Notes under the pieces: generated by a model | Seen by the model: only the letters and a program-made list of their open reading frames with translations | The model's database searches: none | What the model was told of the DNA's origin: nothing | Assembly: GCA_963845755.1 (NCBI GenBank) | Contig: CAWJTV010000013.1 | Span: 287,973-351,972 of the forward strand | Length of the DNA stretch: 64,000 bases | Reading direction: 5' to 3' | DNA from: an uncultured Planctomycetota bacterium | Lineage (GTDB): Bacteria; Planctomycetota; Planctomycetia; Isosphaerales; Isosphaeraceae | Position numbers and translations under genes: made by a program | Shown here: piece after piece, positions 25,574 to 44,715 of the stretch | Position numbering within the stretch: position 1 is the stretch's first letter | Layout: every line of letters begins with the position of its first letter

Positions 25574-27217
25574 ATGATCAACGTCGCCAACGGTGGGGCG
25601 AGTTCGGCGAGATCGTCGCTGCCGACCAAGATGAGAGGACGACTCCTCACTCTGGTCTTGGTCTCGGCTTCGGTCTGGGGCTGTCACTCAGACGTCCGAG
25701 CCGCCGATTACTGGGTCGCTCCCAACGGGCGAGATGCGACCGGTCGGGGCAGTCGATCTCGTCCGTGGGCGACCCTCCAATATGCCGCCAACCGGGTTCG
25801 TAAGGCCGATATCGTCCACGTCCTCGATGGTGATTACGAAGGTTTCTACTTGACCCGCGGGGGGACGCAGTACGCCCCGGTCCAGTTCCGAGCCGAGGGG
25901 AAGCACGTTCGGATCTCGAAGCGGAACCGCGAGACCCCGGACGGGATTAACATCGAGGGTGCCAGCCATGTCATTCTCGACGGCTTCGCGATCAACGGCA
26001 TGCCTCGCGCCGGGATCCGTGCCACGCACAGCTCCGGTACCAGGATCCAACACATCAACGCCGATGGCAACGGGATCTGGGGAATCTACACAAGTTTCTG
26101 CGATGATATCCGCATCGAAGACAACTCCTGCTCGGGATCGATCAAGGAGCACGGAATCTACGTGAGCAACAGCGCCGACCGACCCGTCATCCGCGGCAAC
26201 ACCTCCCGAGGCAATCGGCAATGTGGTATCCATATCAACGGCGATGCGAGCCAGGGGGGCGACGGGATCATCTCAGGTGCCCGGATCGAGAACAACCTCA
26301 TCTCCGATAATGGTCGCGGCGGCGGGTCGGGCATCAATTGCGATGGCGTGCAGGACTCCAAGATCCAGAACAACTTGCTCTACGAGAATCACTCCAGCGG
26401 GATTTCCCTCTACCGCGTCGACGGAGCGGCCGGGTTGACCGGCAACTCTGTGATCAACAATACGGTCGTCCAGGCGACGGATTCGCGGTGGGCCGTCAAC
26501 ATCAAGAACCGGAGCAGGAACAACCTCGTCGCGAACAATATCCTCATGAACGGTGGATCGCGTGGTAGCCTCAACGTCTCCTTGGACTCCTTGGCAGGAC
26601 TCCGGAGCGATCATAACATCGTTGCGGACCGGTTCTCGCCCGACGATGGCGAGCGAATCCTCAAATTATTCTCCTGGCAGTCCGTAACGGGTCTTGATGG
26701 CCACTCTCGCCTCTCGAGTCCCCGGGATCTTTTCGTCGATCCTGATGGCGGCGACTACCACCTCCGGCAGGGGAGTCCAGCGATCGACGCGGCCGACCTC
26801 GCGATGTCTCCACGCACAGACATCGAAGGAGTGCCCCGGCCGCTGGGCGCCGGCCCGGACGCGGGCGCCTACGAAGCGAGGGCCGGCGCCAAGAACGGCC
26901 ACGGCCGAGTCGGTCCTCTTCGAGGGCATGTCCTCACAGCAGGATTCCTTGCTCTCGTCGTTGCTGGGTTCGCAGCAACATGGGGGTTTCGCGCTTGGAT
27001 TCAGGCTATTCCCACAGCAATCGTGATGGATGTACTTTTTGATACTTTGGCAAGCTGTTGTGTCGAAGCAACATCCAGTTGCAGGCTACAATCCCCCTTC
27101 GACCTGCCAAACTTGGCACTCTTGATATTTAATGACCAAACTAGACCCTTCAGACCAGAGTCGCGATACGCCCCTGCCGGCTCGTCGCGTTCCGGGTCCG
27201 ATGCATCTCGAAGATGA
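25574..27217 (+). CDS. Secreted right-handed beta-helix protein, paralog of 10404-12551
   Basis: Signal-like N-terminus, YWVAPNG, HGIYVSNS, GIHINGDASQGG, GINCDGVQDS, SPAIDA...PDAGAYE, C-terminal TM. Confidence 0.75.
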   Translation: MINVANGGASSARSSLPTKMRGRLLTLVLVSASVWGCHSDVRAADYWVAPNGRDATGRGSRSRPWATLQYAANRVRKADIVHVLDGDYEGFYLTRGGTQYAPVQFRAEGKHVRISKRNRETPDGINIEGASHVILDGFAINGMPRAGIRATHSSGTRIQHINADGNGIWGIYTSFCDDIRIEDNSCSGSIKEHGIYVSNSADRPVIRGNTSRGNRQCGIHINGDASQGGDGIISGARIENNLISDNGRGGGSGINCDGVQDSKIQNNLLYENHSSGISLYRVDGAAGLTGNSVINNTVVQATDSRWAVNIKNRSRNNLVANNILMNGGSRGSLNVSLDSLAGLRSDHNIVADRFSPDDGERILKLFSWQSVTGLDGHSRLSSPRDLFVDPDGGDYHLRQGSPAIDAADLAMSPRTDIEGVPRPLGAGPDAGAYEARAGAKNGHGRVGPLRGHVLTAGFLALVVAGFAATWGFRAWIQAIPTAIVMDVLFDTLASCCVEATSSCRLQSPFDLPNLALLIFNDQTRPFRPESRYAPAGSSRSGSDASRR

Positions 27218-27266
27218 GACGGCCGATTTCTCAGGTCGATGCCACACACCAAGACCTGGAGGGGTT

Positions 27267-28603
27267 ATGCGTCTGTGCCTGGTCGAAGATATGGCCGCCG
27301 GTGGGCTTGAACCACTGACCTTGACACGTCCGGTGCATGAATTGCTCCTGGGCGCCACCACACTCGCAAGCAAACTTGCGCGCGCGTTCGGTATCGGACC
27401 TGGACCACAGCGTCGTGGATGCGTGATTCGCTCCCATCTGGTGACCGCCCAGCAACATCGTGATCCGCACATGGTGGTGAACGACCGTGACTGGCTGGCG
27501 TGCGCGGCGGTGGTCGTGGCCAACAGTCGATGGGTTCCCCCAGCGGGGTTCCGGGTTCCCGACGATCATGGTCCCTGGGTGGGATTGTGCGAGGGGCAAC
27601 CGGCCTGTGCGCTGGTTGGTCCCGAGGAGGCCGACTCGCTGGAACCGCAGCATGTCAACATCTGGTTCGAGCGGGTCGCGGCCCGGTACGGAGGGTCGGA
27701 GCTCGGCGGCGAGTGGATCGTTCGCCCGTGGGATCTGGTCGCCCGCAACGGAGCCTATCTGGAGCGGGATTTTGTCGAGGGAGGGCATGGGGGAGTCACC
27801 AACCGGCACTTGACCACGATGGCGCTCGTGGGACCAGCCGATCGACTGCGAGTCCACGATACCGCCCGCATCGACCCCTACACCGTCTTCGACACGACGA
27901 ACGGCCCGATCATCCTGGGGCCGAATGTCTGGGTCCAACCGTTCACCCGGATCGAGGGCCCGTGTGCGATCGCCGCCGACACCCAACTCTTCCGGGCCAA
28001 CCTGCGCGGTTGTGTGACGATCGGGCCTCAGTGCCGGATCGGTGGCGAGGTCGAGGCCGCCATCGTCCACGGCTTCTCCAACAAGTATCACGAGGGGTTC
28101 CTGGGGCATGCTTATGTCGGCGAATGGGTCAACCTCGGAGCGATCACGTCCAACAGCGACCTGCGCAATGATTACGGCGAGGTCTCCGTCCCCCTCCAGG
28201 GGGACCCGATTCCGACCGGTCAGGCCAAGGTTGGCTGCTTCATCGGCGACCATACGCGGACCGGCATGGGGAGCATGCTCAATACGGGTACGTCGATTGG
28301 CGTGATGTGCAACGTCCTGCCGGCAGGGATCCTCTTGCCGAAGCACGTGCCGTCATTCACCGCAGTCTTGTACGGCCGGGTTGCGCCAGCTTTTCGCTCG
28401 ACAAGATCTTCGAGACGGCTCGCATCGTGATGAGCCGCCGGGGCAAGGTGTTCAACGAGGCCGAGGAACTGCTCCACATGGCGCTCCACGACCAGACCCG
28501 CCTCGAACGCGAGCGCGCCTTCCAGCGCTCCCATGATCGCCGGGGCGATTTCTGGCCGATCGCCCAGGCCGCACGGCCCGATCGGCCCTACGCCGCTCTG
28601 TAG
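27267..28603 (+). CDS. GlmU-related putative sugar nucleotidyltransferase/acyltransferase with left-handed beta-helix (frameshift near 28390)
   Basis: LEPLTLTRPVHELLLG, CRIGGEV, NKYHEGFLGHAYVGEWVNLGA, KVGCFIGDH. Confidence 0.8.
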
Positions 28604-28744
28604 CTTACGGCGACCAGAACATTGATGTCGCCAGAGAATACGATCACAAGTCACTGTCGCAAGAAAGGCCGTGCTGCACTCAGCCAATATAAAACCGCAC
28701 GTTTCCCAATAATATCGTTTAACTAGGATTCATTGAAAAAAATA

Positions 28745-28773
28745 TCGAAGTGGACTTGACTTCATAGTACAAT
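28745..28773 (+). promoter_or_regulatory. Possible sigma70-like promoter upstream of the diiron-enzyme/ACP cluster
   Basis: TCGAAG-N17-TACAAT preceded by an AT-rich tract (28685-28745). Confidence 0.3.
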
Positions 28774-29001
28774 CACGGTGAAAATCCATCACTCGCTCAT
28801 TGAGGAGCGGGAGAGAGCAGAGTCGCAAGGATCGTCCCAACGAAGTCGGGGACATCTGAGATTGCTCCTGGCGTGTCTGCTCGCGCGCGCATTCGATGTC
28901 TTGCGAGGGCGCCCACAAGGTTCTCTCGAAGCGACCCGCCAGCATTGTCGCTGGTAGTCTCAATTCGACTCACAATCCCAATCTCGTACGGAGGACGTAC
29001 C

Positions 29002-29667
29002 ATGCCATCATCGAATGGGTGTTTGCTTGCAGAACCTGTTGCGTTGATTGAGGACAAGGTGACCGCAATCATCGACGAGCTCATCGAGTCGCTGCCCGAC
29101 CCGAAACAGCTTACCAGCCAAGAGCGCCGTGGGATCATTGCGAGATACACCTCGGTGCTCGAAGGCAATTTCATTTACTGGATGACGGCCGCGGTCATCG
29201 CCGCTAAGGCGGAGCAATCGGGGCCCATCCTGCTGGAAAACCTGTATGAGGAAGTGCATGACTGCCATCCACTGATGCTGCGCAAGTTTGCGATGGCGGC
29301 CAACGCCTTCCCCACCGATACAGACGCCTTGGCGGTGCACGACGACCTGACCAAGATACGCCAGTTCATGGGCAAGCTCTCGCCGGTCAAGTTGGTGTTG
29401 ACGATGGGCTTCTTCGAGGGCTTCATCCAAAAGTTTATGGCTTACCTGGCCTACTTGGCCGCGCAACAGGGCTCGACGGAGATGGAGTACACCGATGTCC
29501 ATGGTGTCTGCGACATCGAGCACACCGAAGGGCTCTTCAAGGTGTTAGCTGCTGAGATTGCCCTGACGTCGCCCGCGCCGGATGCGGATCTCTTCGAGGG
29601 AGTCGCCCTTCTTCGCACTCTGATCGAGCGGATTATCTGGCCCCACGCGGCACCGGCTGCTGCCTGA
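29002..29667 (+). CDS. Heme-oxygenase-like diiron oxidase (CADD/PqqC-like)
   Basis: Helical-looking 221-aa protein with LLENLYEEVHDCH, FFE and YTDVHGVCDIEH, matching the CADD-type E..H / E / H-x3-D-x2-H ligand set; GGAGGA RBS. Confidence 0.7.
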   Translation: MPSSNGCLLAEPVALIEDKVTAIIDELIESLPDPKQLTSQERRGIIARYTSVLEGNFIYWMTAAVIAAKAEQSGPILLENLYEEVHDCHPLMLRKFAMAANAFPTDTDALAVHDDLTKIRQFMGKLSPVKLVLTMGFFEGFIQKFMAYLAYLAAQQGSTEMEYTDVHGVCDIEHTEGLFKVLAAEIALTSPAPDADLFEGVALLRTLIERIIWPHAAPAAA

Positions 29668-29731
29668 ATCGCCGGGCGAGGAAATACGCGTGCCAAGCTA
29701 GCCAAGAACACTGCCAGCGGAGAACTCATGC

Positions 29732-29977
29732 ATGAGCGTTCGATCTGAGATTCTCGACCAGTTCAACCAAGTCGCGCATGAGCAGGACAAGCGGCTCGGG
29801 CCGCTGTCCGATGAATCGCCGCTGCTGGACTTGGGCTTGGACTCGCTGTGTTTCGCGATCATTGTGAGCCGCCTGGAAACCGTGCTGGGCGCGGACCCGT
29901 TCAGCGAGAGCGAAGACGCTCCCTTCCCTGTGATTCTGGGAGAGTTTATACGCTTCTATGAGAACGCCGTGCAATAG
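29732..29977 (+). CDS. Acyl carrier protein
   Basis: 81 aa, acidic, LGLDSL phosphopantetheine motif. Confidence 0.88.
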   Translation: MSVRSEILDQFNQVAHEQDKRLGPLSDESPLLDLGLDSLCFAIIVSRLETVLGADPFSESEDAPFPVILGEFIRFYENAVQ

Positions 29978-31355
29978 CTTCCCTATCCTGCGGGATGCGA
30001 TCGATGCCGACGGGACGCCGCCTGGCTCTTTGATCGGCGCCGCCCATCGCACCACTCTTGGCGATCTGCTCCAGGGGTCAGCGATTGCGTCCGGCGTTGA
30101 GAATCTGCGCGGACGCTCGGTGCTGATCGCCTCGGCTGACCCATTCCTCGTGGCGCTGGCGCTGATCGAGTGCGATGGACTGGCGCGGCGCATGACTCTC
30201 TATCCGCCCGACCTCGCTCTCGAGCATCTGCCCTACGTGATGCGTCACGCCGAGGTGGATTCGGTGGTCTCCGACGGCAGTTTTCTCAGCGCCGCCTCCA
30301 TCGGCGCGGCGCAATATGCCATATGTACGCCGCGGCTGGTCCCGCGCGTTCATGCCAGCCTAGAGCGTCTGCCCACCGAGTGGATTCTGCTCACCTCGGG
30401 AACAACCGGCCGGCCTAAGATGGTGCTGCACACGCTGGCCAGCTTGGCGGGAGCCATTGGCGCCAGCGAGTCGCACACCGAAGTGATCTGGGGCACGTTT
30501 TACGACATTCGCCGCTACGGCGGCCTGCAAATCTACCTTCGCGCCGTGCTGTCGCGTTCGTCGCTGTTGCTTACCGGGCCGCAGGAGCTGGTGGCGAACT
30601 TCCTGCGGCGTGCCGGAGAAGCCGGCGTAACGCACATCTCCGGCACTCCATCACACTGGCGGCGGGCGCTGATGAGCCCCGAAGCCGACCGCATTGCGCC
30701 ACGTTACATCCGGCTCTCGGGCGAGATCGCCGATCAGGCCATCCTCAACAGCCTGCGCTCCTTCTATCCGGACGCTGAGATCAGCCACGCCTTTGCCACC
30801 ACGGAAGCCGGCGTGGCCTTCGATGTCCGCGACGCGCTGTCAGGGTTCCCAGCCAGTATGCTGACCGGCACCTCAGGTGTCGACTTGAAGGTGGTGGACG
30901 CAACGCTGCGCGTGCGCTCCAGCCGCACCGCCGAACGCTATCTCGGCGAGAATCCGCCCGTACTGAAAGACCGGGAGGACTTTGTTGACACCGGCGACGT
31001 GCTCGAGCTTCGCGATGGCCGCTATCACTTCCAGGGCCGGCGCGACGGCGTTATCAACGTTGGCGGGCTCAAAGTGCATCCCGAGGAAGTCGAAGCGGTG
31101 CTCAACCGCCATCCTCAGGTGCGGCTGTCACTGGTCAAGACGAAGAAGAACCCGATTACCGGCGCGCTCGTCGTAGCCGATGTGCTTCTCAAGGACCCGT
31201 CTACTCCCGAGGGCGATCAGGCGCGTGAATTGCAGCAGACCATCGCGCAGTTCTGCCGTGAGTCGCTGGCGCCACATAAGGTGCCGGCGGCGATCAGCTT
31301 TGTTCCCGCGTTAGCCATCTCGGAGACAGGAAAGCTGGTACGCCGTCATGGGTAA
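29958..31355 (+). CDS. AMP-dependent (ANL family) acyl/aminoacyl ligase
   Basis: LTSGTTGRPK, ATTEAG, DTGD, GRRDGVINVGGLKVHPEEVE, SETGKL. Confidence 0.88.
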   Translation: MRTPCNSFPILRDAIDADGTPPGSLIGAAHRTTLGDLLQGSAIASGVENLRGRSVLIASADPFLVALALIECDGLARRMTLYPPDLALEHLPYVMRHAEVDSVVSDGSFLSAASIGAAQYAICTPRLVPRVHASLERLPTEWILLTSGTTGRPKMVLHTLASLAGAIGASESHTEVIWGTFYDIRRYGGLQIYLRAVLSRSSLLLTGPQELVANFLRRAGEAGVTHISGTPSHWRRALMSPEADRIAPRYIRLSGEIADQAILNSLRSFYPDAEISHAFATTEAGVAFDVRDALSGFPASMLTGTSGVDLKVVDATLRVRSSRTAERYLGENPPVLKDREDFVDTGDVLELRDGRYHFQGRRDGVINVGGLKVHPEEVEAVLNRHPQVRLSLVKTKKNPITGALVVADVLLKDPSTPEGDQARELQQTIAQFCRESLAPHKVPAAISFVPALAISETGKLVRRHG

Positions 31356-31391
31356 CGTCATCGTGACCGGCGGAAGCCGAGGCATCGGACT
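31187..31391 (+). repeat. About 205-bp diverged direct repeat, copy 1 (ligase 3' end plus SDR start)
   Basis: Aligns to 32538-32743, including ...GGAAAGCTGGTACGCCGTCATGGGTAAYGTCATCGTGACCGGCGGAAGCCGAGGCATCGGACT. Confidence 0.92.
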
Positions 31392-31746
31392 CGTTGTTCG
31401 CTATGGAGCGGCGATCTTAACTGCACAGGTCTGTATCTGCGGCGGTCCCATGCTGGGGCTAGCATCTGCCGGACGCCGGGACTTCGCTACAGAAACCGTG
31501 CATGCTTCTCCTGCTGCCTAGATCTCCCTGGCCTGCCTGGCAGTCCTCCCGACTGTTCTGGCCTACACCCTGTGGTACGTGGCCCTGGAGCGGCGTTCCG
31601 CAGCGAAATTGACCATCTTTACCCATCTTACGCCGGTCTTTGGCGTCGTGCTGTCGGCGGCGGTGCTTGGCGAGGCTGTCGGGATGACCGTCATTTCAGG
31701 CGGGGTTGTCGTCGTTGGAGAACTCGCCTTCACAAACCTCAAATGA
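31348..31746 (+). pseudogene. Chimeric pseudogene: SDR N-terminus fused in frame to the 3' part of an EamA/DMT transporter
   Basis: MGNVIVTGGSRGIGL, then TAG at 31519, then VLAYTLWYVALERRSAAKLTIFTHLTPVFGVVLSAAVLGE (EamA-like). Confidence 0.7.
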
Positions 31747-31767
31747 ATTTTGTGGTGGCATAATCGT

Positions 31768-32514
31768 ATGATCATCTGGAAATTTGGCGGGGCGTGCTTC
31801 TCAGATAATGAACGCCTGATCAGAATCGCTCGCAAGATCGCCGACTGGCCTCGACGCCGCGACCTCGTCGTGGTCGTCTCGGCCAAGCAGGGTGTCACCG
31901 ATCAGTTGATTGCCGAGATGTGCGAGTTGAATCCCAATCCCCCGCTCGATGCGCTCGACACCATCCTGGCGACGGGAGAGATGCAGGTCGCGTCTCTGCT
32001 CGCCGCCTCGGTCGCGCGCTTCGGGAGGAGCGCGACCGTGATACCCCCGTGGAACGTGTTTCGCACGGACGATGTCCCGAATAATGCCACGATCGAGTAC
32101 GTCGATGCCGTACCGATCGTCGATCAACTCGAGCGGTACACGATACCGATCGTACCGGGATTCGTGGGCGCGACGCAAACAGGGATACTTAGGACGTTAG
32201 GCCGCGGCGGATCGGACTACTCGGCGGTGGCACTCGGCGTGCGACTTTGCGCGAGCGAAGTGTGCCTGTTCAAAGCCGATGTTGATGGCATCTATTCGGC
32301 CAATCCGCACATGGATGGCGATGCGCGTCGCATCGATAGGCTGAGTCACCTCGAGGCCCTCTGCCTTGCCCGAGAAGGGGCCCGGGTTTTGAATTCCAAG
32401 GCCGCGGCGCTCGCGAGTGAGAGCGGCCTCACGCTGTGGGTACGCCACGCTTTTGAGAAAGGAGGAGGTACCCAAATCACTTCGATGCCGCATGTGTTGT
32501 CGGACTGTGGCTAG
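31768..32514 (+). CDS. Aspartate kinase catalytic domain only (no ACT domains)
   Basis: WKFGG, VVVVSA, LATGE, IVPGFVG, TLGRGGSDYSA, DVDGIYSANP, GARVL; ends after 248 aa. Confidence 0.8.
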   Translation: MIIWKFGGACFSDNERLIRIARKIADWPRRRDLVVVVSAKQGVTDQLIAEMCELNPNPPLDALDTILATGEMQVASLLAASVARFGRSATVIPPWNVFRTDDVPNNATIEYVDAVPIVDQLERYTIPIVPGFVGATQTGILRTLGRGGSDYSAVALGVRLCASEVCLFKADVDGIYSANPHMDGDARRIDRLSHLEALCLAREGARVLNSKAAALASESGLTLWVRHAFEKGGGTQITSMPHVLSDCG

Positions 32515-32537
32515 GCATTGCTCGCTGCTTAGCGAAA

Positions 32538-32743
32538 TCTCAGGGACCCGTTGACTCCCGATGGCGACCAGGCGAGCGAATTGGAACAATCCATCACGCA
32601 GTTCTGCTGTGAGTCGCTGGCGCCGCGATAAGGTGCCGGCGGCGATCACCTTTGTTCCCCCGTTGCCCACCTCGGAGACAGGAAAGCTGGTACGCCGTCA
32701 TGGGTAATGTCATCGTGACCGGCGGAAGCCGAGGCATCGGACT
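32538..32743 (+). repeat. About 205-bp diverged direct repeat, copy 2 (dead ligase tail plus start of the intact SDR)
   Basis: Matches 31187-31391; carries a 1-bp insertion in the ligase portion. Confidence 0.92.
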
Positions 32744-33438
32744 GGGCATCGTTCGCCGCTTAGCGAAGACCGGCTACCGTGTGATGGCCCTCGCGCGAAA
32801 AGAGAGCCCCGAGTTGCGCGAGGCCATCGATGAGGCAGCAGGTCGCGGCATCGGCTCGATTGGCTTCACTCCATACGATCTGGCCGAGACCGACGGCATG
32901 GCCGCACTCGTCAAGCAACTCCGTAAAGACCTGGGGCCCGTCTACGCCCTGGTGAACAACGCGGGCATGAGCATCGACGGCACGCTGGCGCTCACCAGCA
33001 CTACGCAGATCGAGCAGGTGGTGCGGCTCAACGTGGTTTCGCCGATCCTGTTGAGCAAATATGTCTTACGTACGATGATGGCCGACGGCACGGGCGGTCG
33101 CATCGTCAATCTGGCATCGATCATCGCCTTCACGGGATATAGCGGGCTCTCCGTTTACGGCGCCGACCAAAGCGTCGATGATCGGCTTTACCCGCTCGCT
33201 GGCCCGTGAAGTCGGCCGAACCGGCGTGACCGTGAACGCGGTGGCGCCGGGCTTTGTCGATACCGAGATGACCAAGGGACTGACCGAGGAGCATCGCGAG
33301 CAGATCGCGCGGCGACGCGCATTGCGCCGGCTGGTAGAGGTGGATGACGTTGCCGCCGCTGTCGAGTATCTGCTCAGCGACGGTGCCAGGAACATCACCG
33401 GCACGGTCATCACTGTCGACGCGGGGAATACGGCATGA
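32700..33438 (+). CDS. SDR oxidoreductase, 3-oxoacyl-ACP reductase-like (frameshift near 33165)
   Basis: TGGSRGIG, VNNAG, YxxxK region across the frameshift, VNAVAPGFVDTEM, ITGTVITVDAG. Confidence 0.85.
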
Positions 33439-35237
33439 GCGTAGCACTCGGCGAAACCGTTCAAATAGCTGCTAGGCCAGGCGCGTCCGTATCCCGGGCT
33501 TGGCTGCGGGCGCTCGAGTTGACGGCGCCCATACCCCGCCAGCGCGAGCGCGTGCTGCCCGCAGTCGTCGACGAGTTGGGCCACCGGCTGGGCGACAAGC
33601 CCGCGCTGCTCTCCGACCGCGAGTGCTTCACCTACCTCGAACTCGCCGGTGCGCGCGGCGGTACGCCCGCTGGCGCTCGCACAGGGCGTGGCCAAGGGCG
33701 ATGTGGTCGGCCTGTTGATGCCCAACCGCCCTGAGTATCTTGCTATCTGGCTGGGTGTCACCCGCGTTGGCGGAGTCGTCGCACTACTCAACACCAACCT
33801 CGTCGGGCAGTCCCTTGCGCACTGCATTCAAGCTGTTTCGGCTAAACACCTCATCGTCGCCGCGGAGCTCGCCAATGCGCTCGACACGGCCCTGCCGCAC
33901 CTCGCCGCGCCGCCGCAGGTGTGGATTCACGGCGGATGGCGCAGCATCGACGAGACGATCGAAAGCCTCGCGGCCGCGCCACTCGAGGCCGGGGAGTTGC
34001 GCGAGATCACTATCGACGACCGCGCGCTCTTTATCTTCACGTCGGGCAGCACGGGCATGCCCAAGGCCGTCAACGTGAGCCACGCGCGCGTGATGCAGTG
34101 GGGGCTGTGGTTCGCGGGCATGATGGACGCCCAGCAGGGCGATCGGTTGTACAACTGCCTGCCCATGTATCACAGCGTCGGTGGAGTACTGGCTCCGGGC
34201 GCGATGTTGGCTGCCGGCGGCTCGCTGGTTGTGCGCGAGAGGTTCTCGGCGAGCCAGTTCTGGAGCGACGTCATCCGCTGGGAGTGCACCGCGTTCCAGT
34301 ACATCGGCGAGCTTTGCCGCTACCTGCTGCACCGCCCCATGCGGAGAACGAGACCGCGCACCGCCTTCGGCTCGCTTGTGGCAACGGCCTCGCGGCCAAC
34401 GTGTGGGAGGCGTTCCAGCGGCGCTTCCGCATCCCGCAGATCCTCGAGTTTTACGCTGCCACGGAGGGAGGCATCTCGCTGTTTAACGTGCAGGGCAAGC
34501 CCGGGGCCATCGGCCACATTCCCCCGTATCTGGCGCACCGCTTCGCGCCTGCGCTGGTCGCATTCGACTTCGACAAAGGCGAGCCGACCCGCAACGAGAA
34601 CGGTTTCTGTATTCGCTGCGGCGTCAACGAGCCCGGCGAGGCGATCGGCAAGGTGCAGAACGATCCGGCGAGCACCGGCAGCCGGTTCGAGGGATACACC
34701 AGTGCGGCCGAGACCGAGAAGAGAATCCTTCGCAATGTCTTCGCAGCGGGCGACGCCTGGGTACGGACCGGCGACCTGATACGCCAGGACGTGAAGGGCT
34801 TCTTCTACTTCGTCGACCGCATCGGCGACACTTTTCGCTGGAAGGGCGAGAACGTGGCGACCTCCGAGGTTGCGCAACAGCTCTGCGCTTTCGAGGGCAT
34901 CCTGCATGCGAGCGTCTACGGAGTCGCGATTCCGGGAACCGAAGGCCGCGCCGGGATGGCGGCCATCGTCTGCGAAGGCGCGCTCGACCTCGCCGCGCTG
35001 CACCGGCATCTCGCCGAGCGGCTGCCCGCCTACGCGTGTCCGCTCTTTCTACGGCTCTGTCCGCAGGCCGAGTTAACCGGCACCTTCAAATATACGAAGA
35101 CCGATCTCGTCCGGCAGGGATTCGACCCGAGCCAATGCGCCGACCCACTGTACTTCAATCATCCCGAGCTGTGCGCCTACGCCGTACTCGACGCGCCGCT
35201 GTACGACAGCATCCTCGCAGGAGCCATCCGTTTATGA
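33435..35237 (+). CDS. FATP-type long-chain acyl-CoA synthetase (frameshifts near 33655 and 34340)
   Basis: IFTSGSTGMPK, LPMYHSVG, FSASQFWSD, QYIGELCRYL, YAATEG, RTGDL, DRIGDTFRWKGENVAT, EGRAGMA, TGTFK. Confidence 0.85.
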
Positions 35238-35450
35238 TCTGGAACAGCGACACCACCCAGACATGCCTACGACTCTGCGCCCGCAAGTCCACGCCACGCC
35301 GATGTGCTCGGCTCGGGCGCAGTTATATAGAACCGAGGTTTCCCGTTGTTTGCCCCGCCCGGGTAGCGGTTCGCACGCTTCCCCACGGAGCACGACCTGA
35401 GCTGATCGCCACACAGCCTTAACGCAACGTACCGCAGAAGGTGAGAGCCG

Positions 35451-36849
35451 ATGCAGGTCGATCAGCTACAGCACGAATTCGAGCGGGTGCAGGCCGATCT
35501 CGCGGGTGGCCCCATCCTTCCCGCGGTCACGGTGGACGAGATTCGCCGTTATCTAGCCAGCCAGTATCACTTCCAGAAAGAGCTTCCTCTCGATGAAGTT
35601 GTCCAAGACGCCGAGAAGATGCTTCGTAACTGGCAGGTTCAGGTAACTCATCCGCGCTATCTCGGGCTTTTCAACCCATCCGTGACGCTGCCTTCGGTGA
35701 TCGCCGAGACTTTGGTGGCTATGTATAACCCCCAGCTAGCCAACTGGCGCACCTCGCCCGCCGGCAACGAGATCGAGCGGCATACGCTGGGCTGGCTGGC
35801 GGCTAAGTTCGGCCTGCCCGGAGATACCATCGCGACCTTTACCAGCGGAGGCACGGAAGCCAACCTCTCCGCCGTGGCGGTGGCGCTGAGTCATGCGTTT
35901 CCGGAATACGGCGAGCACGGTCTACGCACCTTGTCGGCGCCTCCGTCTCTCTATCTCACGGGTGAGGCGCATCATGGATACAACAAGATCGCGCACATGA
36001 CCGGGATCGGGCGCCGTGCGCTTCGCCTAGTCAAGACCGACCGCTGTCTGAAGCTCGACTTGGATAGCCTGCGCCGCCAGGTGCGCCGGGACCGCGAAGA
36101 CGGCTGGGCGCCCTTTCTGGTCGTCGGCACTGCGGGCACCACCGCGGCTGGGGTCATCGATCCGCTGCCCGATATCGCCCGGTTCTGCCGCGAAGAGGGT
36201 TTATGGTTCCACGCCGATGCCGCGTGGGGCGGCGCGGCGATCCTCTCGCCCGCGCTCAAGGAGAATCTCGCTGGCATCGAGCAAGCCGACTCGATCACCT
36301 GCGACGCGCACAAGTGGCTTTCCGTGCCCATGGCCTGCGGCATGTTCTTCTGCCGTCACCGGGAGAGCGTGGCGCTGCGCGTTTCACGCCGATGTGACCT
36401 ACGTGTCCGGCAAGCAATCCGGGCCGGTCTTCGATCCGCTCACCAACTCGACCCAGTGGTCGCGGCGGTTCATCGGACTCAAGCTGTTCCTGGCCTTGGC
36501 CAACCTGGGCGAATCCGGATATGCGGCGATGATCGAGCACCAGGCGCGCCTGGGCCATGTCCTGCGCCGGGCGCTGACGGCCTCTGGCTGGCAGGTCGTC
36601 AACGAGACGCCGCTGCCACTGGTCTGCTTCACGCGTGAGCATCTCGACCCGGCCGCCTTCCTCGCCGCGCTGCACCGGCGGCAGATCGCCTGGATGTCCG
36701 AGGCCCACATCGACGGAGCTCCGGTGCTGCGCGCCTGCATCACCAACTTCCGCACTACGGAAGCCAGTATCCATCAGATCGTGGAAGCGATGAATCAACT
36801 GTTTCAGCAAGGGGTGGGCACGCTCAAGCCGGAGCCGCAGTTGCGATGA
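35451..36849 (+). CDS. Group II PLP-dependent amino-acid decarboxylase (frameshift near 36378)
   Basis: HPRYLG, TSGGTEANL, GTAGTT, WFHADAAWGG, ADSITCDAHKWL; C-terminal LRACITNFRT. Confidence 0.85.
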
Positions 36850-36913
36850 GGACAATCGCGCCCGCAGACTGGACAACGTCCGCGCAGAGGCACTCGCCAA
36901 CGGTGGAGTCTCG

Positions 36914-38188
36914 ATGAAACGCGAAACACTTGCCATTCACGGTGGTTACGAGCCCGACGCCGCTACGCGGTCGGTTGCGGTACCCATCTACCAGACCGTG
37001 GCCTACGCTTTCGACAGCGCCGAACACGCCGCGGCGCTCTTCAACCTGGAAGTCGAGGGCTACCGTTACACGCGCATAAGCAATCCCACGACTGCCGTGC
37101 TGGAGCGGCGCATGGCCGCGCTCGAAGGCGGACGGGAGGCGATGTGCGTGGCCACCGGCCAAGCCGCGGTGAACTACGCGGTGCTCAACCTCGCCGGCAT
37201 GGGCAGCAACATCGTCTCGCCGCCGCAGCTCTACGGCACGACGCACACGCTGTTCGCGCATATTCTGCCGGAGCAGGGCGTGTCGGTGCGTTTTGCCGAG
37301 TCCGAGCGTCCTGAGGCTATCGAGCGCCTCATCGACGCCGAGACGCGCGCCATCTACTGCGAGAGCGTAGGCAATCCGGCCGGCAACATCTGCGATATCG
37401 AGGCGCTGGCGCAGGTGGCGCACCGGCACGGCATCCCACTCGTGGTGGATAACACCGTGGCCACGCCTATGCTGATGCGCCCGATCGAGTACGGCGCCGA
37501 TATCGTGGTGCACTCGCTCACCAAGTATATGGGCGGGCACGGCACAACGCTCGGCGGCGTCATCGTCGATAGTGGCAACTTTCCGTGGGCGCAGCACGCC
37601 GCGCGCTTTCCCATGTTCTGCGAACCCGATCACTCCTACCACGGCCTGGTCTACACCGAGCGATACGGTCCGGCGGCCTACATCGCCCGCTGCCGCAGCC
37701 GGTATCTGCGGACCACCGGAGCCGTGCTCGCGCCGCTCAGCGCCTTCTTGCTGCTGCAGGGAGTCGAGACCGCGGCGCTGCGCGTCGAGCGCCACGTGGA
37801 GAACGGCCGCAAGGTGGCCAAGTTTCTGCGCAGCGACCCACGCGTGACCTGGGTCAAGTACGCCGGTTTTCCCGACAGTCCGTACTACGCGCTGGCCCAG
37901 AAGTACCTCAATGGGCAGGGCTGCTCGCTGATGACGCTGGGCGTCAAGGGCGGCTACGAAGCCGCCATCCGCTTCTACGATACGTTGAAACTCATCACCC
38001 GCCTGGTGAACCTGGGCGACGCCAAGTCGCTGGCCTGTCACCCGGCTTCGACCACCCACCGGCAGATGTCGCCCGAGGAACAGCGCAACGCCGGCGTTCT
38101 GCCGGAGATGATCCGCCTGAGCATCGGGATCGAACATATCGACGACATCCTGGCCGACCTCGATCAGGCCCTGAACGCGGCAATGTAA
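36914..38188 (+). CDS. metY: O-acylhomoserine sulfhydrylase / aminocarboxypropyltransferase
   Basis: VAVPIYQT, YTRISNPT, VVDNT, HSLTKYMGGHG, LLLQGVET, NLGDAKSL, HPASTTH, IRLSIGIE. Confidence 0.88.
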   Translation: MKRETLAIHGGYEPDAATRSVAVPIYQTVAYAFDSAEHAAALFNLEVEGYRYTRISNPTTAVLERRMAALEGGREAMCVATGQAAVNYAVLNLAGMGSNIVSPPQLYGTTHTLFAHILPEQGVSVRFAESERPEAIERLIDAETRAIYCESVGNPAGNICDIEALAQVAHRHGIPLVVDNTVATPMLMRPIEYGADIVVHSLTKYMGGHGTTLGGVIVDSGNFPWAQHAARFPMFCEPDHSYHGLVYTERYGPAAYIARCRSRYLRTTGAVLAPLSAFLLLQGVETAALRVERHVENGRKVAKFLRSDPRVTWVKYAGFPDSPYYALAQKYLNGQGCSLMTLGVKGGYEAAIRFYDTLKLITRLVNLGDAKSLACHPASTTHRQMSPEEQRNAGVLPEMIRLSIGIEHIDDILADLDQALNAAM

Positions 38189-38230
38189 GCGAGAACGCCG
38201 CTCGCCGCGGCGCGCAACAAAGAGGTTGCC

Positions 38231-39276
38231 ATGCCAGTCTTTTTGAACCCGAAGTATCACGATCCCGAGCGCTGGTCAGGCCTCAACTGGCCGCGTGTGC
38301 AGCCGGGCGCAAAAAAAACCCACGCAGAACTTTTCTGCACATCGGCTTGGTCAACAACATGGCCGATGCAGCCATGTGCGCAACCGAGCATCAGTTTCTC
38401 AGGCTGCTTGAGGCGGCTGCGGGGGATATGCTGGTCCACTTCACGCTCTATGCTTTGCCCGAGGTGGAGCGGAAGCCCGATGGCCGGCGCCGCGTGGGCA
38501 GCTTTTATTTTGACATTGAGCAGCTTTGGGAGCAACCGCCGGAGCAATGTCCGGACGGGTTGATTGTCACCGGACGCGAGCCGCTCACCCCCGATTTGCG
38601 CGAGGAGGCCTACTGGCCCAGCTTTAAACGCGTTCTAGAGTGGACGCAGGAGCACGCGCGTTCGGCAGTATGGTCGTGCCTGGCGGCTCATGCGGCGGTG
38701 CTGGCGCTCGACGGCATTGACCGCGTGCGCAGTCAGCACAAGTACTTTGGGATCTTCACCTGCGAGCAGGCCGCGCCGCACGCACTGCTCGCCGGCGCGC
38801 CCGCAAGCCTGCGCTTTCCTCACTCGCGCTGGAACGGCGTCTCCCCGGGCCAATTAGCCGCGAACGGATACGAGGTGCTCACGCGCACCAGTGACGGTGG
38901 CGTCGACACCTTCGTCAAGCAGGATGCAGGGCTGTTCGTGTTCTTCCAGGGCCATCCGGAGTACGAGTCCGAGACGCTTATGGGCGAGTACCGGCGGGAC
39001 GTCGGGCGGTATCTCAGGGGCGAGATGGAAACCTACCCGTTGCTGCCGCTGCACTACTTCGAAGAAGAGACCGAGCGCTCTCTGTGGGAGATCGAAGCCA
39101 AGGCACGGGCATCGCGCCAGGAGACGCTCCTCGGAGAGCTCTCTGCCGTGCTCAACAGCGTCCGGATCCGCAACACCTGGCGCAGCACAGCCGTCCTCAT
39201 CTACCGCAAATGGCTCGAGCACCTGTGTACGCAGAAGCGCCACGGCGGCAAACTTATGGTCGGCGTGGGAGCTTAG
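38231..39276 (+). CDS. metA: Homoserine O-acyl(succinyl/acetyl)transferase, MetA family (frameshift at or near the A8 run about 38311-38318)
   Basis: IGLVNNM, DGLIVTG, WSCLAAHAA, PHSRWN, FQGHPEY. Confidence 0.8.
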
Positions 39277-39335
39277 AAGATGCCACTTGTAGGACTCGAA
39301 CCTACGTCAAATTCCCCTCTTGTAGGAACAATGGC

Positions 39336-40389
39336 ATGATATTCGGAACGAAAATCACCCCATTGCGACGCGATGATATTCCAGAATTGAGCCAGTTTCT
39401 TATCAGCGGTGCCCGCGATCCCACAACCTATTATCGTTACTCTCACGAGGTCCTCTTATGGAAGTATTTTGATGGGCCAAGCGGTCCTTCGGGAGACTCC
39501 GTCTGCAGCCTCATCGCGCGCTCGGCGGGCAGGATCATCGGACACGTTGGAATGTGTCCCCGCCAGTTCATCGTATCGGGAAACGGAGCGACGCCAATAT
39601 CGACAATGCACGCCATCGACTGGCGGGGCTCGCCTGCGCATCCCGGCTTGGGAGCCTTCTTGATGCTGCAAGCCCTTGCGACTAGCAAGACACAGTACGC
39701 CATCGGCGGAACCGAACAGGCGCAAGCCGTCTTTCCAAGGTTGGACTTCGAGCAGAAGCCCAAGGTCGCCACCTTTCGCAAGGTGCTCGCTACCATTCCA
39801 TCGCTTGCGTACGACGGGTCAGGGATTATTCCGCAAATGGGCAGGAACAACTAAGGACATGGTGTCGGTTTGGCGGGCGCGCACACCGCCGGTGCCGCAG
39901 ACCGTCGAACTCCGCGCGGCACCTACGTTCACCCAAGAAATTGATTGCTTACAACGACAGTCTTCACTACGCATCGTGACGTGCCAGCGTGATCACCTGC
40001 TGCTCAATTACTTTCTTCGGTGTCCACTGTCGGGCTTTTCTGGCTGGACGATTCACACATCTCAGCGAATGATCGGCTTCGCCGTCTTGAAGATCACTCC
40101 GTACGGACGAATCCAGCTTGGAAAAATAGTGGATTGTTGGCTTGATACCGAGGATCCGTCATGTTGGCAGGCCGCGGTCGCGGCGCTCATCGATCGCCTC
40201 CGCGCCCTTTCTGCGGACGATGTCACATGTTATGCTACCACCCCGAGCCTGCACGCGGCATTGCTCTGGAATGGCTTCGCCAAATCGGGGGAAAGAAACG
40301 TGTACATTCGCGACAAACAGCAATCGCTACCCCGAGACCTTCCTTTCGCACTCTCGATGTTGGATAGCGACCGTGCCATTCTCTACTGA
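39336..40389 (+). CDS. GNAT-like (probably tandem-domain) acyltransferase (frameshift at about 39791)
   Basis: LLWKYF, IIGHVG, AIDW...GLGAFL, R-x4-LNYFLRCP, IVDCW, LLWNGF; the duplicate at 51095 lacks the extra T and restores the frame. Confidence 0.55.
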
Positions 40390-40424
40390 ACCTGAAGTGC
40401 GCCCCTAAAACCAGACGAGTTGGC

Positions 40425-40686
40425 CTACTGAACAGACGTTGCAACCGATGGCTTTGATCGTGGCATGCCGATCCATTGTTGCTCGAACTCAGCCGGAGTC
40501 AAGTACTCCAGCGACGAGTGGATCCTCTTGCGGTTGTAGACGTCATCCAGGAACCTCCCCAGGCCCCTCATGGCGTCGCTGAAGTCCTCGTACTCCGAGA
40601 GATCGACCTCCTCTTCCTTGATGGTCCTCATAAGCCCCTCGGCGTAGCCATTCTCCTCGGGTTCGCCCACGCTCGCCATGCTGGCG
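40425..40686 (-). pseudogene. IS3 orfB (integrase core) C-terminal remnant
   Basis: ENGYAEGLMRTIKEE...YNRKRIHSSLEYLTPAEFE. Confidence 0.85.
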
Positions 40687-40723
40687 GTTTCGGTCAGGAT
40701 CGGGTTCTCCCGCACTTTTGATG

Positions 40724-43113
40724 GTGCGACACGATGTCGTCGATGTGGCTGTGCCGAGGCCTTCGGAGAAGACCGACGGCACCTGTTGTTCTGCCGACAG
40801 GATCCTACCGGGATAGTAAGCCCCGGAACAACGTAACCTCCTCTCTCGAGAGGGCAGCCGACGCGTGAGCTGACGCTGCGACCGCGAGCATCAAGGCGGT
40901 CGGGGGCCAGGATGAGGTGGATAGGTCAACTTCGGTGAAGCAGCGATAAACGTCGTGAGTGCGAACAAGCGAAAGATGCTGACACGCTTGGGCCAAAACG
41001 GCATGTGGTCAGGTTCGAGGGCTCATCGATCTCTCGACGCAGATGACGGACCACCGGCGGATAGCTGCGACCTTCCCCACCCCGGCATATCGGCGAAACG
41101 TGGTAAGCCCGTCGTCTCCCCGCAAGGGAAAGCGACTCGCAAGAGAAGCCGATGGGGCGGCGGGTAAAGGAGGAGGGAGAAAGCGAAAGCTGGTCCGTAA
41201 CCGACCAGATAAGGGTTGAGCCATCCGGCGAGATCACCCTACCCGAAAGGGGGCAGACTTCCCTCTGGTCTTCCGTCACGAGAGAACCTTGGCCAACCGA
41301 CAAAGGGAGACAAGCAGATATGTCAGCAGCAGAAATGCCCGCTGGTGCGGCTCCCGACCTTGCAACCGACTGGCATTCCATCAATTGGAAGGCGGTCTAC
41401 CGCAATGTTCGTCGGCTCCAGGCGCGTATCGTGAAGGCGGTTCGGGAGGGCAGGTGGAATAAAGTCAAAGCCCTGGTTTACCTGCTCACTCACTCATATA
41501 GTGGCCGGGCTCTGGCCATTCTACGAGTTATCAGCAATTCGGGTGCAAGAACTCCGGGCGTGGACGGAATCCTCTGGACCACGCCGGAGGCCAAGACGAG
41601 GGCCTTCAACGCCTTGCGTCGGCACGGCTATCAGCCGCAACCGCTCCGCAGGGTGTACATTCCCAAGAGCAACGGCCGCCGCCGCGCCCTCGGGATTCCC
41701 ACCATGGCCGATCGAGCTATGCAGGCCCTCCACCTGCTCGGTCTCGATCCCATCGCGGAATCTCAAGCCGACGGTCACTCCTATGGCTTTCGGTTGGAAC
41801 GATGCTGCGCCGATGCTCTGGATCAATGTCACAAGATCCTGAGGAATCCCACCGGTCCGAAATGGATTTTGGAAGGGGATATCAAAGCATGCTTTGATCA
41901 AATCAGCCATAACTGGCTGCTGGACCACATCCCCATGGACAAGGACATGCTCAGGAAATGGTTGAAGGCCGGTTTCCTGGAGAAGCAAGTTCTCTTCGCC
42001 ACCACGGAAGGCACACCTCAAGGAGGGATCATCTCTCCTGCGCTGGCGAATCGGACGTTAGATGGGCTCCAGCAGTTGTTGGAGCAACGCTTTGGCACCC
42101 GAGGCCATCGGCGTGACGAAGCCAAGGTCCATCTGGTCCGCTATGCGGATGACTTCATCATCACCAGCACCTCACGAATCCTCCTGCAACGCGAAGTCCA
42201 ACCTCTCGTGGAACACTTCCTACGTCAGCGGGGTCTCGAACTCTCCCACGAGAAAACCAGGATCACGCATTTGGAGAACGGCTTCGATTTCCTTGGCCAA
42301 ACGGTCCGACGTTACCGCAGTGGCAAGGTCTTGACCAAGCCATCAAAACGAAGCGTCAAGACCTTCTTGACCAAGATCCAGGAAACGATCGACAACTCGG
42401 GGAGCATGACGGCTGGAGACTTGATCCTGCGTTTGAACCAACAGATCAAAGGCTGGACCATGTACCATCGTTATGTCGCGAGTAAACGCACCTTCACGAC
42501 TGTGGACAACCGAATCTTCTGGAAGCTGAAACGATGGTGTCATCGACGCCATCCGCAGAAGAGTTGGAAGTGGATCAAGACGAAATACTTTCAACAAGTG
42601 GGTCACCGAGACTGGGTGTTCACGGGCACAATCCGTGACAGCACGGGCAAGGGCCGACCCATCCAGCTCATGAACGCCGTGGGAGCCAAAATCCTGCGGT
42701 GGGTGAAGATTCGGAGTGCCGCCAACCCCTACGATCCGGAGTGGGAACTCTACTTGGAAGAACGGCTGGCCTGGAAGCTCAGCCACACTCTGGCGGGTCG
42801 AGGACGGATCGAATATCTCTGGAAGGAACAGCAGGGACGTTGCGTGGTGTGCAGGCAAGCGCTTCACGCCGAAGAGCAACCCTGGCACATCCACCATCGG
42901 GTCTGGCGCAGTCACGGTGGCCAGGAGACGTGTGACAACCTGGAAGTGCTCCACGCCAACTGCCATCGACAAGTCCACGCCCAGAAGCAATCGCTGAAGA
43001 ACCCAGCCGCGTCCTGAGAGGGGCGTTAGTGAAGGCTTGAGCCGTATGAGGCGCAAGTCTCAAGTACGGTTCTTAGGGGGCGGGGAGACAGCAATGTCTC
43101 CCTGCTACCCGAC
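40724..43113 (+). ncRNA. Group II intron (probably IIB, chloroplast-like class)
   Basis: 5' GTGCG; domain V GAGCCGTATGAGGCGCAAGTCTCAAGTACGGTTC; domain VI ending CCCGAC; EBS1 CATCAA (40889-40894) in a GACCGC/GCGGTC hairpin, complementary to the exon end TTGATG. Confidence 0.92.
41320..43017 (+). CDS. ltrA: Group II intron reverse transcriptase/maturase with HNH endonuclease
   Basis: WHSINW..VRRLQARI, TPGVDG, RRVYIPK, GTPQGGIISP, RYADDF, maturase region, HHRVWRSHGG...NLEVLHANCH. Confidence 0.95.
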   Translation: MSAAEMPAGAAPDLATDWHSINWKAVYRNVRRLQARIVKAVREGRWNKVKALVYLLTHSYSGRALAILRVISNSGARTPGVDGILWTTPEAKTRAFNALRRHGYQPQPLRRVYIPKSNGRRRALGIPTMADRAMQALHLLGLDPIAESQADGHSYGFRLERCCADALDQCHKILRNPTGPKWILEGDIKACFDQISHNWLLDHIPMDKDMLRKWLKAGFLEKQVLFATTEGTPQGGIISPALANRTLDGLQQLLEQRFGTRGHRRDEAKVHLVRYADDFIITSTSRILLQREVQPLVEHFLRQRGLELSHEKTRITHLENGFDFLGQTVRRYRSGKVLTKPSKRSVKTFLTKIQETIDNSGSMTAGDLILRLNQQIKGWTMYHRYVASKRTFTTVDNRIFWKLKRWCHRRHPQKSWKWIKTKYFQQVGHRDWVFTGTIRDSTGKGRPIQLMNAVGAKILRWVKIRSAANPYDPEWELYLEERLAWKLSHTLAGRGRIEYLWKEQQGRCVVCRQALHAEEQPWHIHHRVWRSHGGQETCDNLEVLHANCHRQVHAQKQSLKNPAAS

Positions 43114-44696: not shown

Positions 44697-44715
44697 GCCG
44701 CACCGAGTTTTTTTC

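Follow-up and report, generated by a model that had tools for sequence, protein, structure and literature searches.

A conserved eight-gene cassette with a heme-oxygenase-like diiron enzyme at the end of a planctomycetal glycan locus

Results

Ten co-oriented genes at 29002-40389

The stretch of DNA analysed here (the window, 64,000 nucleotides; G000:C13:287973-351972, contig C13 of genome G000) belongs to an uncultured Planctomycetota bacterium, whose assembly spans 14.27 Mb in 49 contigs and is 87.9% complete. Scans of the open reading frames (ORFs) of the window with Pfam and NCBIfam profiles place ten genes at 29002-40389, all on the + strand, in agreement with the ten co-oriented genes of the original prediction for this DNA. 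Eight of the ten form a conserved cassette, composed of a heme-oxygenase-like diiron enzyme (HDO), an acyl carrier protein (ACP), an adenylate-forming (ANL) ligase, a short-chain dehydrogenase (SDR), a FATP-type ligase, a pyridoxal phosphate (PLP)-dependent decarboxylase, MetY and MetA. This cassette is real, widely conserved and uncharacterised. The gene order is not the one first described; it runs HDO, ACP, ligase, kinase, SDR, FATP, decarboxylase, MetY, MetA and GNAT-like gene, as follows.

29002..29667, + strand: HDO, 221 amino acids; PF14518
29732..29977, + strand: ACP, 81 amino acids; PF00550
29958..31355, + strand: short ANL ligase (LIG1), 465 amino acids; PF00501 and PF13193
31187..31391, + strand: direct repeat, copy 1; working 3' end of the ligase and a remnant of the first ~15 SDR codons
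31750..32514, + strand: catalytic domain of an aspartate kinase, ACT-less, 254 amino acids; PF00696; within an insertion of ~1.15 kb
32538..32743, + strand: direct repeat, copy 2; degenerate remnant of the ligase 3' end and the working SDR start
32700..33438, + strand: FabG-like SDR; adh_short, adh_short_C2; frame change near 33165
33435..35237, + strand: FATP / very-long-chain acyl-CoA synthetase-type ligase; NF006134; frame changes near 33647-33671 and 34334
35451..36849, + strand: group II PLP-dependent amino-acid decarboxylase; PF00282; frame change near 36374-36376
36914..38188, + strand: MetY-type O-acetylhomoserine sulfhydrylase, 424 amino acids, intact; TIGR01326
38231..39276, + strand: MetA-type homoserine O-acyltransferase; PF04204, NF003776; frame change near 38310
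39330..40389, + strand: GNAT-like protein X356, 349 amino acids; weak GNAT signals; frame change between 39751 and 39806

The genes of the cassette are closely packed or overlapping. The overlaps foreseen between the ACP and ligase genes and between the SDR and FATP genes measure 20 nt and 4 nt, respectively. A third one, of the ligase with the SDR start, holds in part: the 3' end of the ligase does enter an SDR start (31348-31392), but this start is the remnant copy within the first repeat. Also as predicted, no ketosynthase, condensation or thioesterase domain is present among the window ORFs scanned. The Rfam scan of 27000-44000 returned a group II intron alone, with no riboswitch ahead of the cassette or of metY. 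A 135-codon frame at 31356-31763 was considered as a further gene and set aside; it has no family match, is found in one locus only and is probably spacer.

Conservation and distribution of the cassette

A scan of one genome per species gave 280 stretches with relatives of the HDO, the best 80 of which were kept and make up 78 loci (designated by L and a number). Presence of each gene was called by tblastn of the window proteins against these loci, with a floor of 60 bits for the count of all eight. The HDO is found in all 78 loci, the ACP in 76, the ligase in 73, the SDR and the FATP-type ligase in 67 each, the decarboxylase in 62, MetY in 59 and MetA in 57. The kinase is found in one locus and the GNAT-like protein in six, and the four glycan genes upstream in the window are found in none (0/78). 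All eight core genes occur together in 51 loci and are colinear in 50 of them. When only the loci with the full 10 kb downstream are counted, 49 of 65 hold all eight and 57 hold at least six; the remaining loci are cut by contig ends, or their genes are displaced beyond the fetched range by insertions.

Because dozens of other genomes hold these genes in the same arrangement, the gene set is not a chance grouping, and the cassette very probably represents a single co-inherited functional unit. The synteny comparison therefore bears out the earlier claim that these genes are co-conserved as one unit. The same holds for the claim that the combination matches no characterised pathway, as no characterised counterpart was found in the literature outside subscription journals and supplements.

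The loci come from metagenome-assembled genomes (MAGs) labelled Planctomycetota, Pirellulales or Tepidisphaeraceae (73-87% identity) and, in many cases, from Acidobacteriaceae and Bryobacterales (59-70% identity). Three cultured Acidobacteriaceae carry the cassette: Tunturiibacter lichenicola MP8S11, Acidipila rosea DSM 103428 and Terracidiphilus gabretensis S55. Its distribution is rare and patchy across genomes. The HDO was found in none of 40 relatives of the window's genome, the same genus included, in none of 300 other genomes of its phylum, and in four of 201 sampled genomes of the Tunturiibacter family, the centre genome counted.

An inserted kinase bracketed by a direct repeat

The kinase, which had been counted as a member of the system, does not share this conservation. 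A direct repeat (31187-31391 / 32538-32743; 206 bp at 89.8% identity by blastn, with the tblastn pieces in agreement) doubles the stretch in which the 3' end of the ligase gene meets the start of the SDR gene, and flanks the ~1.15 kb that hold the kinase gene. The one other locus with a kinase, L003, has the same arrangement at 90% identity. Since the gene lies in a repeat-bracketed insertion and only L003 shares the arrangement, the kinase reads, at the sequence level, as a lineage-specific addition outside the conserved system.

Its assignment as an aspartate kinase stands for the catalytic part. The domain is complete (PF00696, 133 bits, positions 2-233 of 234), but the ACT regulatory domains are missing, and the aspartate-kinase model NF005154 aligns over positions 3-246 of 407 only, with 186 bits against a cut-off of 376, short of a full aspartate kinase. 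The other aspartate kinase of the genome, on contig C47, is 35% identical to it. We infer that the inserted kinase is active and insensitive to feedback, and its position on the route from aspartate to homoserine fits a role in precursor supply.

MetY and MetA as a cassette-specific pair

The presence of methionine genes in the cassette allows another explanation, namely that the genes are not one system and that metY and metA are ordinary methionine genes beside a fatty-acid-activating operon. Both proteins do score as standard enzymes. MetY has 609.1 bits with TIGR01326 (cut-off 495.1) and 659 bits with the narrower NF004757, under its cut-off of 790. MetA has 199.8 bits with PF04204 and, in the window, 356.3 bits with NF003776 (cut-off 358) for a single-frame reading that omits the first ~26 residues; the N-terminus of this copy reads in another frame, and the orthologue in L050 exceeds the cut-off with 388.2 bits. 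Furthermore, no convincing MetX was found in the window's genome (best 111 bits), which would leave a place for these genes in ordinary methionine synthesis.

The comparison across genomes argues in the opposite direction. Across phyla, MetY and MetA come after the decarboxylase in 57-59 of the 78 loci. MetX is retained separately in the carrier genomes, frequently next to a MetY: of five other carriers, four encode a strong MetX at another place (352-463 bits), and in three of these it adjoins a MetY-like gene. With the cassette MetY of T. gabretensis the MetY of the window shares 75.7% identity, while cassette MetY copies are 54-55% identical to the housekeeping MetY of T. gabretensis; even between phyla, the cassette copies thus resemble one another more than they do the housekeeping paralogue in the same strain. 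The HTS family (MetA) was found in none of 40 relatives of the window's genome, which also lack the cassette, and the cassette copy is the sole HTS gene in four of the five other carrier genomes. No HTS gene was found in the fifth, A. rosea, whose locus stops at a contig end.

Judged by these sequence comparisons, MetY and MetA are a dedicated, cassette-specific pair and not housekeeping genes. That they might be the only housekeeping copies had been named beforehand as an outcome that would speak against the system; the identities and the MetX evidence indicate otherwise. The reading of metY and metA as methionine genes only is largely refuted, and we consider it highly improbable. Two reservations weigh on the other side. 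Because there is no clear MetX in the window's genome or in its family relatives, MetA and MetY may have a housekeeping role in this genome alone; and because MetY scores as an ordinary sulfhydrylase, it may just make homocysteine. As no convincing MetX was found in the genome or its family relatives and no HTS in any of the 40 relatives, the lineage seems to manage without either acyltransferase, MetA and MetY having arrived with the cassette.

The HDO and its partner proteins

The HDO of the window reaches the gathering score of PF14518 by a small margin (29.8 bits, cut-off 28.9), and its orthologue in L050 has 34.4 bits; the gene is single-copy in the window's genome. The AlphaFold2 model (predicted local distance difference test, pLDDT, 90.9) is all-helical. 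Its best Foldseek matches are the N-oxygenase HrmI, CADD, UndA and BesC (TMq 0.58-0.71), with probability 1.00 for the top matches, E-values of only 2e-3 to 5e-2 and identities of 11-17%. The predicted model thus has the seven-helix heme-oxygenase-like fold. Residues E54, E84, D87, H89, E139, H167, D171 and H174 are invariant in an alignment of 76 sequences and include an H-x3-D-x2-H stretch. At the level of sequence, geometry aside, these are enough residues of the right kind for a set of three histidines and three carboxylates.

The HDO shares its Pfam family (PF14518) and helical fold with the known members, has a conserved His/carboxylate set that may correspond to theirs, and differs from them in the low identity of the structural alignments (11-17%) and in having no match by sequence in the PDB, even to an E-value of 10. 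A second difference lies in its surroundings. The HDO clade described here has an ACP beside it and in some cases forms one protein with a GT4 glycosyltransferase, whereas the members treated in the main text of a 2026 review, about a dozen validated enzymes, act on free fatty or amino acids (PMC13108848). In that main text a carrier protein is named only within one cited title (PMC13108848). The prediction of a complex between HDO and ACP scored 0.00, a value that counts neither for nor against an interaction.

The ACP reaches 21.8 bits with PF00550 (cut-off 20.8), and its G35-L36-D37-S38-L39 segment, with the phosphopantetheine serine, is invariant in 71 sequences. The short ligase belongs to the ANL enzymes (PF00501, 46.6 bits; PF13193, 42.8 bits) and has the TSGTTGRPK motif and the C-terminal ETGK lysine; its N-terminal 140 residues match no model in the Pfam and NCBIfam scans. 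The nearest solved relatives of this ligase are ACSM2A and beta-aminoacyl-ACP synthetases (E about 1e-12 to 1e-14), and its resemblance to these and to benzoate-CoA ligases is distant. The matches of the SDR to adh_short and adh_short_C2 are spread over two frames in the window and lie in a single frame in L005 and L050. The FATP fragments of the window give 278.5 and 404.3 bits with NF006134 (cut-off 625); the intact orthologue in L005 matches the human FATP2 structures with an E-value of 2e-121 over residues 49-600, which places it in the family.

The decarboxylase belongs to PF00282 (Pyridoxal_deC), with 163.6 bits for the first fragment and 227.8 bits for the intact L050 orthologue. Its best NCBIfam models are RhbB and PanP, both far under their cut-offs, and no substrate-specific NCBIfam model is matched at its cut-off; the PDB relatives are 4rit, 4obu and DesA. 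The protein is about equidistant from tryptophan, lysine (DesA), diaminobutyrate and acidic-amino-acid decarboxylases, and therefore says nothing firm on the substrate.

The GNAT-like protein and the acidobacterial hydrolases

X356 itself has no Pfam or NCBIfam match. Among its relatives, 12 of 35 touch PF00583 (best E 0.003), and the seven PDB profile matches are all aminoglycoside N-acetyltransferases, which are GNAT enzymes (E 0.02-0.17). The atlas clusters nearest to X356 show Acetyltransf_1 or Acetyltransf_9 in a minority of their members. The AlphaFold2 model is poor (pLDDT 51.6) and unfit for a fold search. These sequence signals of a GNAT are weak but consistent, and to this extent they agree with the GNAT assigned by the original prediction. 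The place of the protein in the system is narrower than proposed there: X356 occurs in six of the 78 loci, all labelled Planctomycetota, and the acidobacterial versions have a pair of alpha/beta-hydrolases in its stead (40/78 loci). A hexapeptide acyltransferase is found in 15 of the 78 loci.

Frame shifts in the window copy

Five genes of the window (SDR, FATP, decarboxylase, MetA and the GNAT-like gene) change frame at the sites given in the list above. These are seven sites in five cassette genes, and together with one in the ligase remnant they give eight single-base indels within 7.8 kb after 32600. The reading frames of HDO, ACP, ligase, kinase and MetY are intact. The frame shifts, as well as the mobile elements that follow the cassette, had escaped the original prediction.

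If the shifts were real, the cassette would be decaying in this genome and several of its genes would be pseudogenes beside mobile elements. Apart from the clustering of the indels, such decay would be in keeping with the downstream DNA (40.4-64 kb), which is full of insertion sequence (IS) elements, a group II intron and recombinases, and with the broken extra copies of the GNAT-like gene at 51065-51373 and 52659-53093. Against this, the essential genes rpoB and rpoC in this genome are likewise broken up, into two frames and three frame segments, respectively (G000:C34:79366-83015 and G000:C34:567489-571586), and so is a Cys/Met PLP gene on contig C5. The genes that are shifted in the window read as one frame in short-read MAGs and complete genomes (L005, L050 and L078), and in L003, L004 and L006, MAGs of the same naming series, the same genes change frame at other places. 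The completeness of only 87.9% for 49 contigs and the intact frames of the five other genes also speak against decay.

Direct comparison was possible with related soil short-read contigs (88-99% alike), which carry one-base indels relative to the window at 32627, 33165, 33647, 33671, 34334-34336, 36374-36376 and 38310; for example, they have one base fewer at 33165 and one extra at 38310. These cover six of the seven gene sites and the ligase remnant, and none is listed for the site in X356. Because rpoB, rpoC and the C5 gene are split alike and the short-read contigs carry indels at these places, the frame shifts are most likely assembly errors and not gene decay. The density of the indels tells against this conclusion, with eight in 7.8 kb here compared with three in about 7.8 kb of rpoB and rpoC, and for this reason we leave a small chance that some of the shifts are real. 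Decay of the cassette as a whole we regard as improbable. The splitting of rpoB and rpoC means that apparent pseudogenes in this genome need to be checked for indel error.

A search of sequencing runs found none with at least half of the sampled words; the best shares, 0.21-0.23, came from soil metagenomes. Pieces of a metatranscriptome (X17) at 88-99% likeness were considered as a sign of expression and dropped, since DNA carry-over is possible and the contigs are from relatives. Elsewhere in the window, at 20277-22956, a PMT_2-type glycosyltransferase behind a DUF362 gene seems to extend over three overlapping frames (21201-21716, 21428-22420 and 21895-22956), probably another frame-shift artefact.

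Glycan genes upstream and glycosyltransferase fusions

The cassette of the window follows a glycan locus (263-28430) with GT2 and GT4 glycosyltransferases, Wzy_C, a polysaccharide deacetylase, a UDP-GlcNAc 2-epimerase and beta-helix proteins. A scan of the ORFs upstream of the cassette in 17 loci covered 118 proteins; a size limit removed another seven ORFs, one of which was scanned afterwards. Glycan genes lie upstream in 12 of the 17, in two phyla, and comprise sugar transferases, GT2 and GT4 enzymes, proteins of Wzx, Wzy, Wza and Wzz types, UDP-glucose dehydrogenase and deacetylases. A search for longer relatives of the HDO gave six fused proteins. Four protein clusters, 53-66% identical to the window HDO, join a GT4 domain to a C-terminal HDO; two of these clusters have 42 and 10 members, and in two of the four PF14518 cleared the 1e-5 filter. 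The other two fusions are an ATP-grasp-DegT aminotransferase-HDO protein and an HDO-hydrolase protein. The upstream glycan loci and the GT4-HDO fusions strengthen the proposed link to a surface glycan.

A 2OG-Fe(II) oxygenase gene within the glycosyltransferase block of the window (6681-7853) is a second candidate for oxidative tailoring.

Proposed function and the rival product

As the cassette recurs almost unchanged in Planctomycetota and Acidobacteriota of soil, usually beside sugar-polymer genes, its product is probably a surface-polysaccharide decoration not described before. Our best reading of the product is a carrier-tethered unit of the homocysteine/methionine branch, oxidised by the HDO, possibly fatty-acylated, and moved to the surface glycan. 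Every step proposed for its synthesis is derived from family membership and context. MetA and MetY would make private homocysteine, or an S-substituted analogue, from homoserine (step 1), with the inserted kinase, where present, driving aspartate toward the homoserine branch. The decarboxylase would convert an amino acid of this branch to the matching amine (step 2), and the short ligase would put an acid on the dedicated ACP (step 3). The HDO would then oxidise the tethered unit by N-oxygenation, desaturation or C-C cleavage (step 4), and the FATP-type ligase and the SDR would provide a long-chain acyl group, possibly 3-oxo or 3-hydroxy (step 5). Finally, a transferase would place the product on a sugar or amino sugar of the surface polysaccharide (step 6). 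The GNAT-like protein could have this function in Planctomycetota and the alpha/beta-hydrolase pair in Acidobacteriota.

The overall model, that is, a horizontally moved, self-contained eight-gene biosynthetic cassette at the end of a glycan locus that works in these six steps and whose frame shifts are assembly errors, stands evenly balanced in our judgement. A glycan as the target is slightly favoured, and the specific chemistry of the six steps is doubtful. The general idea of the original prediction stands, with its details corrected as described above; its chemistry, in which a homoserine-family precursor would be tethered, oxidised and then transferred, is likewise a proposal.

The cassette might instead make a free small molecule or a lipid, such as an N-acylated sulfur-containing amine, a hydroxamate-type chelator or a building block for a non-ribosomal peptide, its adjacency to glycan genes being shared content of accessory islands. 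Several neighbours point that way and weigh against decoration of a glycan. In L042, a Bryobacterales MAG, a non-ribosomal peptide synthetase (NRPS) of 1993 amino acids with the domain order A-T-C-A-T-TE (L042:3740-9718) lies directly upstream of the HDO. L008, a Planctomycetota MAG, has two copies of the HDO, together with a type II thioesterase and a P450 fragment (L008:7994-13584). These neighbours fit a free metabolite as well as they fit glycan decoration. A flavoenzyme resembling lysine/ornithine N-monooxygenases is upstream in L024, L042 and L078, with an ATP-grasp protein in L024 and L078; the best models of the decarboxylase are the siderophore-type diaminobutyrate decarboxylase RhbB along with PanP, and its PDB relatives include DesA. 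No glycan genes lie upstream in four of the 17 loci (L006, L009, L042 and L079), and L012 is ambiguous. To these points must be added that the link between the MetY step and the rest of the pathway comes from the proposal itself.

For the surface glycan, on the other hand, argue the four clusters of GT4-HDO fusions, the glycan genes directly upstream in 12 of the 17 loci in two phyla, and the hydrolase pair of 40 of the 78 loci, which weakly resembles hydrolases named for an exopolysaccharide-associated system. On balance we consider a free product rather unlikely, and we retain decoration of a surface polysaccharide as the working proposal. In the same loci, the NRPS gene of L042 is preceded by a gene resembling flavin N-monooxygenases, and in L008 a GNAT-like gene lies between the HDO-ACP pair and the ligase.

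About a dozen enzymes of the HDO family have a known reaction, and most of these reactions were new chemistry when found. The HDO clade of the cassette has fixed partner genes, a private branch from homoserine to homocysteine and a physical link to glycosyltransferases. Since the cassette is present in at least three cultured strains, all non-pathogenic, its chemistry is directly testable. If the product is indeed an exopolysaccharide decoration, it would be a new kind of glycan modification in two bacterial groups that are very abundant in acidic soil and peat. It is a long shot that the cassette holds the first HDO with a carrier-tethered substrate and joins an amine derived from homocysteine or methionine to a long acyl group, giving an undescribed sulfur-containing lipo-amino decoration of the exopolysaccharide of Acidobacteriota and Planctomycetota from peat and soil, with the cassette passed between the two phyla as a single mobile unit.

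Comparison with known systems

The exosortase A-associated gene set is likewise uncharacterised and tied to exopolysaccharide, with a ligase and two alpha/beta-hydrolases; we take it to include an ACP and a PLP decarboxylase as well. We considered the cassette as a form of this set and rejected the assignment. The window ligase scores 58 bits with TIGR03098 (cut-off 592), and the acidobacterial hydrolase pair scores 54 and 48 bits with TIGR03100 and TIGR03101 (cut-offs 203 and 168), with no other NCBIfam model matching the pair. Between the cassette and the nearest exosortase gene, on the same contig, lie ~125 kb, and the others are on other contigs. With scores so far under the cut-offs and an exosortase so distant, the likeness is one of resemblance and not of membership. 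In contrast to the exosortase A-associated set, the window lacks the hydrolase pair and its decarboxylase is of group II (PF00282); to our knowledge, HDO, FATP, SDR, MetY and MetA have no counterpart in that set. The exosortase (EpsH-family) genes of the genome are at G000:C13:191359-192114, G000:C5:363071-363832 and G000:C24:76983-77759, none of them near the cassette.

In the Dlt system (D-alanylation of teichoic acid) and in AlmEFG (glycine onto Vibrio lipid A), a stand-alone ANL ligase, a small dedicated carrier and a transferase put a small acyl or aminoacyl group on a surface polymer. The cassette shares this ligase-carrier-transferase logic, a likeness of description and not of homology; we know of no oxidase, decarboxylase, second ligase or precursor-supply genes in Dlt or AlmEFG. 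The pathway for the beta-amino-acid starter of macrolactams (VinN/VinL/VinO/VinM) combines two ANL enzymes, a stand-alone ACP and a PLP decarboxylase, all three of which have a counterpart in the cassette, homology aside. Beta-aminoacyl-ACP synthetases are among the PDB relatives of the short ligase, with weak similarity (E about 5e-12). The cassette differs in having no polyketide synthase, and the decarboxylase of the macrolactam pathway is presumably of a different fold family.

A block of genes in Vibrio cholerae O1 for the N-acylation of perosamine with tetronate, which we assume to include an ACP, offers a further parallel. This block, VC0248-VC0252, was proposed from homology and, like the cassette, is found in a polysaccharide (O-antigen) locus and makes an unusual acyl group, of four carbons, for an amino sugar (PMC3441752). 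Its WbeL is described as a protein of 471 amino acids with a putative ATP-binding domain (PMC3441752). The likeness is again one of description, and HDO, MetY, MetA and a decarboxylase are not among the genes reported for the block in the text of that source consulted here (PMC3441752).

Mobile elements downstream of the cassette

Some 23 kb of mobile-element debris (40428-64000) follow the cassette, which is bounded on this side by a fragment of an IS3-family transposase.

40428..40925, - strand: IS3-family transposase fragment, C-terminal part only; NF033516, E 5e-16
40782..43113, + strand: group II intron; RF02012 at 40782-40907, RF00029 at 43037-43113
41152-43017, + strand: intron reverse transcriptase/maturase; RVT_N, RVT_1, GIIM and HNH domains
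43611-44714, - strand: ISL3 transposase; a fragment of another at 51749-52249
46788-48974: rve integrase
49110-50363, - strand, and 50750-51637: IS4-type transposases
53602-54801: nucleotide-sugar (UDP-glucose) dehydrogenase, ~13 kb past the cassette
55171-55794, 58593-59729 and 62213-63786: IS66 pieces
56056-57753 and 59687-61170: serine recombinases

The cassette had been placed between the glycosyltransferase block and a nucleotide-sugar dehydrogenase. The glycosyltransferase block is indeed upstream, but the dehydrogenase gene is separated from the cassette by ~13 kb of mobile DNA with IS elements, a group II intron and recombinase genes. The two broken extra copies of X356, 50% and 74% identical to the L005 protein, sit just upstream of the dehydrogenase gene, which may once have lain directly after the cassette, before the mobile elements came.

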